Part shown: positions 19,484 through 22,559 of the stretch, piece after piece
How the letters are laid out: every line of letters begins with the position of its first letter
How positions within the stretch are numbered: the stretch's first letter is position 1
Virus genome (UHGV): UHGV-0073579
DNA length: 36,345 bases
DNA from: a virus
Strand: one strand, 5' to 3'
Position numbers and translations under genes: made by a program
Notes under the pieces: model-generated
What the model saw: only the letters and a program-made list of their open reading frames with translations
The model's database searches: none
What the model was told of the DNA's origin: nothing

Positions 19484-19956
19484 ACCTCAATCTCTCTGAC
19501 CGTTCCGCCTGCTTCTTTAAATTTTGCAATCAGGTTGTCAGCCTTATGCTCGAACTGACCGTAACCAGCCCCCGGCAGTGAAGCCCAGATATTGCTGCAA
19601 CGGTCTATTGCCTGACGGATATCACCGCGGTCAATCATCGGTAAAGCGCCACGCTCTTTAATCTGCTGCAATGCCACAGCGTCCTGGCTTTTCGGAGAGA
19701 AGTCTTTCAGGCCAAGCTGCTTACGGTAGGCATCCCACCAACGGGAAAGAAGCTGGTAACGTCCGGCTGCTGTTGATTTGAGTTTTGGGTTTAGCGTGAC
19801 AAGTTTGCGAGGGTGATCGGAGTAATCAGTGAATAGCTCTCCGCCAACAATGACGTCATAACCATGATTTCTGGTTTTCTGTCGTCCGTTATCAGTTCCC
19901 TCTGACCACGCCAGCATATCGAGGAACGCCTTACGTTGATTATTGATTTCCACCAT
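19480..19956 (-). CDS. R: Endolysin, lambda R-type lytic transglycosylase
   Basis: 158 aa; [39 protein letters not shown] essentially lambda R. Confidence 0.92.
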
Positions 19957-20263
19957 CTTCTACTCCGGCTTTTTTAGCAGCGAAGCGTTTGATAAGCGAA
20001 CCAATCGAGTCAGTGCCGATGTAGCCGATGAACACGCTCGTTATATAAGCGAGATTGCTACTTAGTCCGGCGAAGTCGAGAAGGTCACGAATGAACCAGG
20101 CGATAATGGCGCACATCGTTGCGTCGATTACTGTTTTTGTAAACGCACCGCCATTATATCTGCCGCGAAGGTACGCCATTGCAAACGCAAGGATTGCCCC
20201 GATGCCTTGTTCCTTTGCCGCGAGAATGGCGGCTAACAGGTCATGTTTTTCTGGCATCTTCAT
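19940..20263 (-). CDS. S: Holin, lambda S-type with dual-start motif
   Basis: 107 aa; [34 protein letters not shown] essentially lambda S; Met1-Lys2-Met3 dual start. Confidence 0.92.
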
Positions 20264-20387
20264 GTCTTACCCCCAATAAGGGGATTTGCTCTATTTAATT
20301 AGGAATAAGGTCGATTACTGATAGAACAAATCCAGGCTACTGTGTTTAGTAATCAGATTTGTTCGTGACCGATATGCACGGGCAAAA

Positions 20388-20417
20388 CGGCATGAGGTTG
20401 CGCTAACAACCTCATGC
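20388..20417 (-). terminator. 12-bp perfect-stem hairpin (candidate tR-prime-like terminator/attenuator)
   Basis: ggcatgaggttg-cgctaa-caacctcatgcc; followed on the minus strand by GTTTTG. Confidence 0.3.
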
Positions 20418-20505
20418 CACCCGCGTTCACGAAGGTCATGTGTAGAAGGCCGCAGCGTAACTATCACTGATGAATTCAGGATAGCCAGTGGCTACTGCTC
20501 AGTTA

Positions 20506-20581
20506 TGGTGCTGGTTAACGGACTTGAACCGCTACCCATTCGCTTACAAGGCGACTGCTCTACCATTGGAGCTAAACCAGC
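20506..20581 (-). tRNA. tRNA-Thr (anticodon UGU)
   Basis: Hand-folded 76-nt cloverleaf: acceptor GCTGGTT/AACCAGC, D-arm GCTC-CAATGGTA-GAGC, anticodon loop CTTGTAA, T-arm AGCGG-TTCAAGT-CCGTT, 3' ACCA; one G-A mismatch in anticodon stem. Confidence 0.6.
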
Positions 20582-20586
20582 ATGTT

Positions 20587-20661
20587 TGGCGGGACAGCGT
20601 GGACTCGAACCACGATAAGAAGGTTAACAGCCTTCCGTAATGACCTTTATATGACTGACCC
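20587..20661 (-). tRNA. tRNA-like element, Asn-type anticodon arm (GUU), aberrant D-arm; possibly a pseudo-tRNA
   Basis: T-arm CGTGG-TTCGAGT-CCACG and anticodon arm GAAGG-CTGTTAA-CCTTC match tRNA-Asn; acceptor has one T-T mismatch; D-stem does not pair. Confidence 0.4.
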
Positions 20662-20752
20662 AAATAAAAAAAGCCACCGTTGCAACTTAAGAGTCACTAA
20701 CGGCAGCTTATGCGAATAGTGTTGCTCATTTGCTCAATGATGTCAACACGTT

Positions 20753-21241
20753 CTATGCTACATGTTTAATTTTCTCTACACGTTTCCGGTTTTTAAACGC
20801 ACTATCCAGAACCGGATAAATCATAAACAACGAGGCATTGAGGATTTCGTCAACTTCCCGGCGACAGGTTGCGAGCGATGGTTTTTGAATGCGCCCGCCG
20901 CCCCGGCATAACATCTTGCGAGGTCTTGCGACACGATGATAGTAAGATGCAATGGCGTGCTTGGAAGATCCATGAGCGTAGTAGCTGAGGAGGATGCCAA
21001 ATGCTTTCTTGTCAATGTACATGACGGAATCGACGACCTGAGAAATCAACATTCCATCATCATCATTGCACATTGGCCTTGTCATAACTCTTCCCGGCTC
21101 TACGCTCTCCATGAACTTCGCTATTACGCTGCTCATGCGCTTTTCCAGACGACCTGAATAAACCCATGCGCCCCACAGTTCAAGCCAGCCATTCAGCCAC
21201 TCGTGCTGTTCTTTGGTGAGGTTTAGTTCTCTTATGCTCAT
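20753..21241 (-). CDS. Antitermination protein Q-like
   Basis: 162 aa; lies between the nin region and the tRNA/lysis block; family assignment from memory and position. Confidence 0.6.
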   Translation of the reverse strand: MSIRELNLTKEQHEWLNGWLELWGAWVYSGRLEKRMSSVIAKFMESVEPGRVMTRPMCNDDDGMLISQVVDSVMYIDKKAFGILLSYYAHGSSKHAIASYYHRVARPRKMLCRGGGRIQKPSLATCRREVDEILNASLFMIYPVLDSAFKNRKRVEKIKHVA

Positions 21242-21785: not shown

Positions 21786-22060
21786 TGGACAAACACCCTC
21801 CCATTGTTAACCAATTTTTTGAGGGTAAGCACAATGGCCCGATCCATTTCAGCCCTTCGCTCTTCCCTGCTCATATCTCTCCCATTATCAATTCTTGAAT
21901 GACAATCAACACATAGCGCAGCAGTAAGGCAATCATCTACTTTAATCCCAACCCCCTTCCCTTCATTTCTGTGAGCGGCCTGAACTCCGTATCTTCCGCA
22001 AAGAACGCAAAATTCAATATCCCTGACTGCCTGAAGCCATTTTTTGCTTCTAAACATCAA
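21782..22060 (-). CDS. Cys-rich small protein (DUF1364-like), commonly paired with rusA
   Basis: 92 aa with CVLC...C...CVDCH cysteine pattern; ends 4 nt inside the rusA start. Confidence 0.5.
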   Translation of the reverse strand: MMFRSKKWLQAVRDIEFCVLCGRYGVQAAHRNEGKGVGIKVDDCLTAALCVDCHSRIDNGRDMSREERRAEMDRAIVLTLKKLVNNGRVFVQ

Positions 22061-22559
22061 TCCCCTCCAAAAAACGTCGGTACGCTGATTTGTTTTTTAT
22101 GTTGCACACTGTCTGCGCACAAACACCAAATTCTTTGGCTATATCTCTGTATTTGCCTTTTGATTTATATATTGATTTCACTTGTTCTGGCGTTAGTTTG
22201 CAGAAGTGATGATTAAAACCATGAACAAGCAACCCGGAATCAAATCCATGTTTAGCATTTTCTGTTCGCGTTACCCACTCGAGATTTTCAACTTTATTAT
22301 TAAGTTTATTTCCATCCTTGTGATTAACTTCCGGTTTGCCATCTGGGTTATCAATAAATACTTCTGCAACAATTCTGTGAACCATTTTATATGATGGTCT
22401 TTTCCCGCCACCTGGATACAGACCGACAAATGCATATCCTCCTGGTTTAATACCATGAGATAATTTTTTTGATTTACGGCATGAAATGATGTCTCCATTT
22501 TCAGTTACTTTATATATACCCTCAAAGCCGGGGATATCTTTTTCTTTAACATCACTCAT
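22050..22559 (-). CDS. HNH homing endonuclease (NUMOD4-like N-terminus, C-terminal HTH)
   Basis: 169 aa; GFEGIYKVTENGDIIS; HNH core EVNHKDGNKLNNKVENLEWVTRTENAKHG. Confidence 0.85.
   Translation of the reverse strand: MSDVKEKDIPGFEGIYKVTENGDIISCRKSKKLSHGIKPGGYAFVGLYPGGGKRPSYKMVHRIVAEVFIDNPDGKPEVNHKDGNKLNNKVENLEWVTRTENAKHGFDSGLLVHGFNHHFCKLTPEQVKSIYKSKGKYRDIAKEFGVCAQTVCNIKNKSAYRRFLEGIDV

Follow-up and report, generated by a model that had tools for sequence, protein, structure and literature searches.

The phage 21-type tRNA-Asn/tRNA-Thr cassette in the late operon of a P22-like Escherichia coli prophage, with a rare D-stem allele of the tRNA-Asn gene

Stx phages carry small tRNA arrays downstream of the late promoter pR′, between Q/pR′ and the lysis and toxin genes, where they are read by Q-modified polymerase, and a tRNA embedded in an mRNA is generally expected to be excised. 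The array of 933W, ileZ-argN-argO, consists of rare-codon Ile and Arg isoacceptors and belongs to a different sequence family, unlike the Asn and Thr genes studied here. Closer to the present locus, the SfI genome paper, which cites the ileX-near-stx case, described one or both of a tRNA-Asn and a tRNA-Thr gene at the same site in Sf6, ST64T, PS3 and phage 21 (PMC3636060), and phage L has an Asn(GUU) gene together with a Leu(UAA)-type gene there, while P22 is without any (PMC8022706). In the RNA-seq analysis of a BTP1 lysogen, the two tRNA genes were set aside from the list of genes with TPM > 100 (PMC7067206), which implies that they are among the highly expressed loci.

A function in counter-defence has been assigned to the Thr member. 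The tRNA-Thr of phage 21 ("tRNA-Thr21") protects cells from P2 Old, resists cleavage in vitro and restores ACA decoding in vivo, and its resistance was attributed to a "shorter anticodon stem" together with C28U/G42A (PMC12445682). The Thr(UGU) of HK446 gave strong counter-defence versus Old and E. coli thrU did not; the preferential Old targets are listed as Thr, Gly, fMet, Val and Pro, a list that opens with Thr(UGU) and Gly(UCC) and does not name Asn (bioRxiv 10.64898/2026.07.10.737580), and host Asn(GUU) was cut by Old in vitro more slowly than thrU (PMC12445682). The PARIS nuclease AriB cuts E. coli Lys(UUU), Thr(UGU) and, less well, Asn(GUU) between nucleotides 40 and 41, at a site adjoining a U36-A-A-U39 motif, and the Lys, Thr and Asn variants of phage T5 jointly neutralise PARIS (PMC12409363). 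HepS of Gifsy-1 cleaves Thr, Ile and Ser tRNAs (PMC13043305).

The stretch analysed here (the window; 36,345 nt of UHGV virus genome UHGV-0073579) is a P22-like prophage whose nearest phage relatives are E212, CUS-3, HK620 and Sf101. The sar antisense RNA, a marker of the P22-type immI region (ant/arc/mnt), lies at 1642-1708 on the plus strand (Rfam RF00262, 76.6 bits) and confirms this affiliation, and over 8 kb the window matches a prophage of E. coli ST80 strain Es_ST80_L1_NDM_10_2017 at 100% identity. The features surrounding the two tRNA genes are as follows.

20753..21241, minus strand: Q antiterminator gene of phage 21 type (162-aa ORF), directly upstream of the late promoter
20711..20746, minus strand: late promoter pR′, with the −35 element TTGACA at 20741-20746 and transcription start near 20711
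20723-20738, minus strand: Q-binding elements ATTGAGCA/AATGAGCA
20662..20709, minus strand: leader terminator tR′, composed of a hairpin (20671-20709) and a U-tract (20662-20670)
20587..20661, minus strand: tRNA-Asn(GUU), 72 nt plus encoded CCA, discriminator G73 (ARAGORN, Rfam, PGAP)
20652, within tRNA-Asn: base of the rare allele A10
20582..20586, minus strand: 5-nt spacer AACAU between tRNA-Asn and tRNA-Thr
20506..20581, minus strand: tRNA-Thr(UGU), 73 nt plus encoded CCA (ARAGORN, Rfam)
20264..20505, minus strand: lambda-type leader upstream of the holin gene, 242 nt
19940..20263, minus strand: holin gene of the lambda S family, the first late-operon protein gene downstream of the tRNAs

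The positions of the pR′ features were transferred base for base from the annotation of phage 21, which is 99% identical along this stretch and in which pR′, the QBE, a sigma-dependent pause element and tR′ precede tRNA-Asn and tRNA-Thr. The label "antiterminator Q family protein" is given to Q both in phage 21 and in the E. coli prophage identical to the window, and the holin is annotated as "phage holin, lambda family" in that prophage; the location between Q and the lysis genes, proposed earlier from the letters alone, is right. The terminator tR′, annotated as such in phage 21 and Sf6, has a fold energy of −20.2 kcal/mol (z = −4.86; 0/200 shuffles as stable), and G1 of tRNA-Asn directly adjoins the end of its U-tract (20662). 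The annotated pR′ and tR′ both escaped a simple promoter/terminator scan, which gave no hit at 20200-20800; its thresholds were too strict, and this negative result carries no weight. On the downstream side, the leader at 20264-20505 is 93-96% identical to the S-upstream region of lambda, HK75 and others. With phage 21-like sequence upstream and lambda-like sequence downstream, the cassette thus lies at a mosaic joint of the late-regulation and lysis modules.

The same leader contains a 13-bp hairpin at 20389-20418 (minus strand) followed by GUUUUG, and a 61-nt segment containing it has a fold energy of −29.4 kcal/mol (z = −4.3). This hairpin is a possible secondary late terminator by its predicted fold, and if it acts as one, read-through of tR′ may yield the tRNAs without the lysis genes. 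Further upstream, in the nin region, a 169-aa ORF at 22050-22559 (minus strand), whose counterpart in the identical prophage is labelled a NUMOD4 motif-containing HNH endonuclease, resembles a homing-endonuclease insertion.

When ARAGORN was run as the sequence-only reading had proposed, exactly two tRNA genes were called within the 36-kb window, Thr(tgt) and Asn(gtt), both on the minus strand. The Rfam RF00005 covariance model scored them at 61.5 bits (Thr) and 47.4 bits (Asn) versus a gathering score of 29, confirming two adjacent minus-strand tRNA-shaped sequences at 20506-20661. PGAP, whose annotation of the identical 156 bases in E. coli CP031215 was used in place of tRNAscan-SE, reported tRNA-Asn and tRNA-Thr without a pseudogene flag. 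The Thr gene has a fully paired acceptor stem (7/7), an anticodon stem with four of five pairs (G27.A43 at its top), the loop CUUGUAA, a 4-bp D-stem and C where A14 is usual. Its minimum-energy fold is the cloverleaf and, together with ARAGORN and Rfam, upholds the tRNA-Thr(UGU) proposed for the proximal element.

The other element had been described as Asn-type but aberrant, with a D-stem that does not pair and a mismatched acceptor stem. ARAGORN, Rfam and PGAP all call it tRNA-Asn(GUU), and its anticodon stem (5/5 pairs; loop CUGUUAA), its T-arm (CGUGG-UUCGAGU-CCACG) and the G18 G19 of its D-arm are intact. The acceptor mismatch is real, being U4.U69 in a stem with 6/7 pairs. In the covariance-model alignment, the D-stem (10-13/22-25) reads AUAU/UUAC, in which A10.C25 and U13.U22 are unpaired and only U11-A24 and A12-U23 pair; the D-stem is therefore poorly paired, as had been noticed, but two pairs do form. 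The in silico minimum-energy fold of this RNA is not a cloverleaf. Since two tRNAs are called by both programs, and by PGAP as well, the pseudo-tRNA reading fails the refutation test proposed with it, and it keeps some likelihood for the window copy only, on account of G10A. The suspected hand-folding error was not one either, as the fold itself was not wrong, but a trait of the whole family and a change private to the window, G10A, had been run together. An attP site or integration remnant was also considered as the source of the tRNAs and rejected, as both genes are full-length with CCA and lie between Q and holin with no adjoining integrase.

Judged by its alignments, the window pair is the Asn-Thr cassette of phage 21, Sf6, SfI and BTP1, already known and already annotated. 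Megablast found the region in 93 phage records, with tRNA-Asn and tRNA-Thr annotated in these four phages and many more, and the Sf6 record labels the genes "similar to phage 21". The window is 99.1% identical to phage 21 over 317 nt and matches it at 155/156 positions across both tRNAs; its Thr gene is 100% identical to tRNA-Thr21 and to the HK446 tRNA-Thr, its Asn gene is identical to the known cassette at 74/75 positions, and the spacer reads AAUAU in about half of the relatives. The cassette occurs in 369 of 5426 complete E. coli genomes (~7%) and also in genomes of Escherichia albertii, Shimwellia and Phytobacter, with Asn standing alone at the slot in Phytobacter.

Several of these occurrences deserve separate mention. 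The same cassette lies behind three late-promoter modules, namely the phage 21 type, the lambda type (HK446) and a third type. HK446 has both tRNA-Asn and tRNA-Thr directly after a lambda-type pR′/tR′ (positions 401-556 of its analysed segment, L207), and neither gene is annotated in its GenBank record; the 2026 work on P2 Old states that HK446 encodes "a single" Thr(UGU) tRNA (bioRxiv 10.64898/2026.07.10.737580), and the Asn gene thus seems to have been overlooked. The assembly of E. coli Origami2-DE3, a DE3 laboratory strain (NZ_CP084529.1, 4562137-4562292), carries the G10 form between Q and a phage 21-like holin/lysozyme/Rz/bor set, so common expression strains may hold extra tRNAs. Two short contigs binned to Segatella copri and Collinsella metagenome-assembled genomes contain the cassette at full identity, and these are most likely mis-binned phage contigs.

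To decide whether the tRNA-Asn is degenerate, its features have to be separated into those of the family and those of the window. In an alignment with phage 21, Sf6 and ST160, the window gene shows a single difference, A10 where all others have G10, and the family consensus D-stem is GUAU/UUAC, with G10-C25, U11-A24, A12-U23 and U13.U22. An identical D-stem with U13.U22, preceded by the same U8 C9 and accompanied by a similar 8-nt D-loop, occurs in E. coli glyT (tRNA-Gly2, UCC), which shows that a stem of this type is functional; outside the D-arm, glyT is unrelated to the phage gene, and the likeness may reflect shared ancestry or convergence. Klebsiella phage KP13-16 has C13-G22 at the position of the phage U.U, which confirms the register of the D-stem, and a pattern search of IMG/VR found many otherwise divergent phage tRNA-Asn genes with the same D-arm.

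Among 44 distinct Asn-family sequences, 92.7% of the cells were in standard pairs, 15 of the 21 pairs had changed on both sides, and the covariation score was reached by 0/500 shuffles; when the partners were slid by 1-3 columns, pairing fell to 35-52%. The D-stem was fixed by the search pattern in this set, so its invariance there is not evidence. The three other stems showed strong compensatory changes, and this covariation shows that tRNAs built with this D-arm behave like functional ones. Compensatory changes were found for Thr as well (G5U with C68A; U3C/A70G and U6C/A67G in Klebsiella). The U4.U69 mismatch is kept in the lambdoid subgroup whose sequence starts GGGU, with U.G or U.C in a few copies, while other Asn subgroups have U-A, C-G or U-G at 4:69, and it is a conserved trait of that subgroup.

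Nucleotide diversity was further compared over 103 lambdoid copies, and amounted to 0.008 for Asn (positions 28-72), 0.013 for Thr and 0.066 for the next 60 nt, so that the Asn gene is no less conserved than Thr; upstream values were left out of account, since a differing T-run length and different promoter modules inflate them. The Asn gene, eight times less diverse than its downstream flank, full-length with CCA and with a single lesion in the window, shows none of the relaxed constraint, truncation or flank-like diversity that mark a pseudogene. By this comparative evidence the phage tRNA-Asn family is an ordinary tRNA family and not a pseudo-tRNA; its odd shape would be a conserved working architecture for which a pseudogene flag is unwarranted.

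G10A, on the other hand, is private to very few copies. It was found in 0/123 other copies from the first viral scan and the reference phages and in 0/6 species-representative genomes, and an exact search returned one IMG/VR contig and two of the 369 cassette-bearing E. coli genomes. One of these two is the window's own prophage, and the other comes from Galapagos wastewater and has a different nin region, in which the HNH endonuclease ORF is absent (origins of the carriers: one UK, one Galapagos). A10 is therefore a real but rare allele, occurring in at least two mosaic backgrounds, and PGAP annotates both E. coli copies as tRNA-Asn without a pseudogene flag. With A10 in place of G10, the Rfam score falls from 55.3 to 47.4 bits, an 8-bit cost, the D-stem pairs are predicted with a probability of 0.001 where G10 gives ~0.44, and the minimum-energy fold changes to one that is not a cloverleaf; only pair probabilities were used, as the energies of the exact cloverleaf are uninformative (−13.8 kcal/mol for A10 versus −12.8 for G10). 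Because G10A leaves two A-U pairs in the D-stem, the window copy is probably a weakened allele (hypomorph) according to these predictions; its occurrence in two different prophage backgrounds means that it may instead be harmless.

Next, the anticodon arms of both tRNAs were compared with those of their host counterparts at the positions reported to matter for Old (a paired CNG at 28-30/40-42) and AriB (UAAU at 36-39).

Host thrU: 28-30/40-42 CUG/CAG; 36-39 UAAU
Window Thr: 28-30/40-42 UCG/CGA; 36-39 UAAG (G39)
Host asnT: 28-30/40-42 CGG/CCG; 36-39 UAAU
Window Asn: 28-30/40-42 AAG/CUU; 36-39 UAAC (C39)

Both motifs are present in the two host tRNAs and neither is present in the two window tRNAs, each of which shares its anticodon with a host tRNA cut by defence nucleases (Old, AriB and HepS for Thr; AriB for Asn). 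The window Thr also shows the features to which the resistance of tRNA-Thr21 was attributed, namely the G27.A43 mismatch and the U28-A42 pair. For Asn, the absence of the Old and AriB recognition motifs suggests that it could be a nuclease-resistant replacement too; motif loss is weak evidence here, as the anticodon stems differ at many positions anyway, and some wider family members carry UAAUCA, the preferred AriB site, so that motif loss is no family-wide signature. The cassette is without a tRNA-Lys(UUU), the main AriB target, and alone could therefore not defeat the characterised PARIS system. HepS was considered as a driver and set aside as unlikely for a P22-like phage, since it is triggered by siphovirus tail-tip proteins; it would be possible for siphovirus carriers such as phage 21.

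The relatives mark the tRNA slot as a recombination hot spot. In six of them, Asn is followed by a hybrid Thr and a glyT-like Gly(UCC); in the hybrid, the 5′ half is of phage type and the 3′ half resembles E. coli thrU, echoing the host thrU...glyT operon, and in one further relative the 3′ half is identical to that of the host. The hybrid is not called by ARAGORN and scores 49 bits with Rfam. Most hybrid copies read UCAUC, not UCAGU, at positions 39-43, which would remove the CNG motif and leave a shorter stem; these are the two changes to which resistance to P2 Old has been attributed. In two other relatives, ~75 nt after tR′, the 5′ part of tRNA-Asn is fused to a glyT-like 3′ end with a broken acceptor stem (Rfam 32.6 bits); this is a genuine tRNA remnant, which probably arose by deletion between neighbouring tRNA genes at the shared T-loop. 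The second gene of Salmonella phage ST160 (positions 681-749 of the analysed segment, L003), found also in L and ST64T, keeps the Thr acceptor, D and T arms and has its anticodon arm replaced; it has no ARAGORN call and an Rfam score of 42.1 bits, its anticodon was read as UAA (Leu) in phage L (PMC8022706), and it resembles a Thr scaffold on which the anticodon has been switched. Downstream of Q in Klebsiella phage ST16-OXA48phi5.2 (positions 601-920 of the analysed segment, L004), there is an Asn-Phe-Thr-Arg(UCU) array, whose Asn and Thr show compensatory stem changes compared with the E. coli forms.

Three other explanations of the locus have to be weighed. The window Asn gene might be dead, with G10A wrecking the D-arm so that the transcript is misfolded and degraded and Thr alone works. 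The rarity of the allele, the loss of 8 bits, the collapse of predicted D-stem pairing, the non-cloverleaf minimum-energy fold and the G10-C25 pair seen in all 43 other family sequences (in a set where the search pattern fixed the D-stem) all point that way. Nevertheless, the copy stands 18 bits over the Rfam threshold, is called by ARAGORN and PGAP, carries no second lesion and shares its allele with a different mosaic prophage; A.C beside two intact pairs, with the G18 G19/T-loop contacts intact, may be tolerated, and in silico folds of unmodified tRNAs are a poor guide, as the minimum-energy folds of E. coli asnT and glyT also miss the D-stem. On this balance we regard a dead Asn gene as rather improbable. 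Far less probable still is that the tRNA shapes serve mainly as RNA-processing signals that free the late mRNA of its leader and terminator and define where the lysis message starts, with decoding as a by-product. The cassette fits between the tR′ leader and the holin mRNA nearly without spacers at its two ends, which would suit this, but the anticodon loops, discriminator bases, CCA and identity elements are conserved, the stems show the covariation of functional tRNAs, ACA is decoded in vivo by the Thr tRNA (PMC12445682), and lambda, P22 and many lambdoid phages have the same late operon without a tRNA. The related suggestion of a tRNA-derived processing signal separate from a tRNA found no supporting evidence.

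More weight belongs to codon supply, by which the tRNAs would only top up the host pool for heavily used late codons with no link to defence. The codon check proposed from the sequence gave a mixed answer in this respect. ACA makes up 30% of the Thr codons in the window versus 10% in a K-12 sample (15 versus 5.4 per thousand codons, p ~1e-18), SfI shows the same ACA bias (PMC3636060), and in the coat gene of phage L, 24 of 25 Asn codons are AAC (PMC8022706). However, the ACA enrichment is found in early as well as late genes, the Asn bias is slight (4.4% versus 3.8% of codons, with an AAU share of 48% versus 37%, window versus K-12 sample), and AGG, AGA and AUA are enriched 4-10 times, yet the cassette has no matching tRNA. 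The significance of the Asn tRNA was "not clear" to the SfI authors (PMC3636060). Moreover, thrU in trans did not rescue cells or phages from Old while the phage Thr did (PMC12445682; bioRxiv 10.64898/2026.07.10.737580), which indicates that for Old sequence matters and not dose alone. Codon supply is thus a real but partial explanation, and as the only one it seems unlikely to us, if somewhat less so than a dead Asn gene.

We therefore favour, with a probability of about 0.8, a two-gene cassette at the start of the late operon in which tRNA-Thr is a nuclease-resistant replacement, tRNA-Asn is likely the same and A10 is probably a weakened form. In this reading, the Asn-Thr cassette, which heads the late operon of the P22-like prophage and lies directly after the tR′ U-tract, would be transcribed from pR′ upon read-through of tR′, fully once Q acts. 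Host tRNA-processing enzymes presumably excise both tRNAs from the late transcript, and no CCA addition would be needed as CCA is encoded. The Thr, identical to tRNA-Thr21, stands in for thrU, the sole ACA-reading tRNA of the host and a preferred target of Old and AriB; its shortened anticodon stem (G27.A43) and altered cleavage motif would let it resist nucleases of the Old/AriB type, and it also adds decoding capacity where phage use of ACA is three times that of the host. The Asn, a normal member of a large phage family, would most likely replace host tRNA-Asn(GUU), and G10A, by removing G10-C25, would make the window copy a weakened allele and not another kind of element. Gene identity, position, conservation and covariation, Thr function and the rarity of G10A come from the present data or the papers cited.

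A bolder extension, which we put forward tentatively and hold to be a little likelier than codon supply alone, is that temperate lambdoid and P22-like phages may use the two tRNAs as one counter-defence module, of which Asn(GUU) would be the second half. If true, Asn and tRNA-Thr21 would replace exactly the two non-Lys host tRNAs depleted by Toprim tRNases of the PARIS/Old type, and the strict conservation of an Asn tRNA without a codon-usage rationale would be explained; the two anticodons of the cassette, UGU (Thr) and GUU (Asn), are those of the secondary targets of PARIS AriB. More remote is the idea that G10A is itself an escape change versus a nuclease reading the D-arm. In any case, the G10A lineage offers a natural D-stem mutant that could be used as a ready-made hypomorph for probing the role of the Asn tRNA. 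For annotation the case is routine, both tRNA genes being called by current pipelines, and the cassette resides in widely used phages (21, Sf6, BTP1 and HK446).

Compared with known systems, the window cassette agrees with those of phage 21, Sf6, SfI, BTP1 and HK446 in gene order, the 5-nt spacer and the start right after the tR′ U-tract, and differs from that of phage 21 in having A10 instead of G10 and in being followed by a lambda-type holin leader instead of the phage 21 pinholin cassette. With the Lys(UUU)/Thr(UGU)/Asn(GUU) set of T5 it shares two of three anticodons, and U39 of the AriB motif is absent in both sets; unlike T5, it is without a tRNA-Lys, and its two genes show only a distant relationship to their T5 counterparts. 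The more than 20 tRNAs of T5, a virulent phage, are served by dedicated promoters, whereas the window belongs to a temperate phage with two tRNAs in its late operon. In its proposed role the window cassette would act in the manner of the replacement tRNAs of T5 and T4 and would represent a minimal temperate-phage form made of two late-operon genes.
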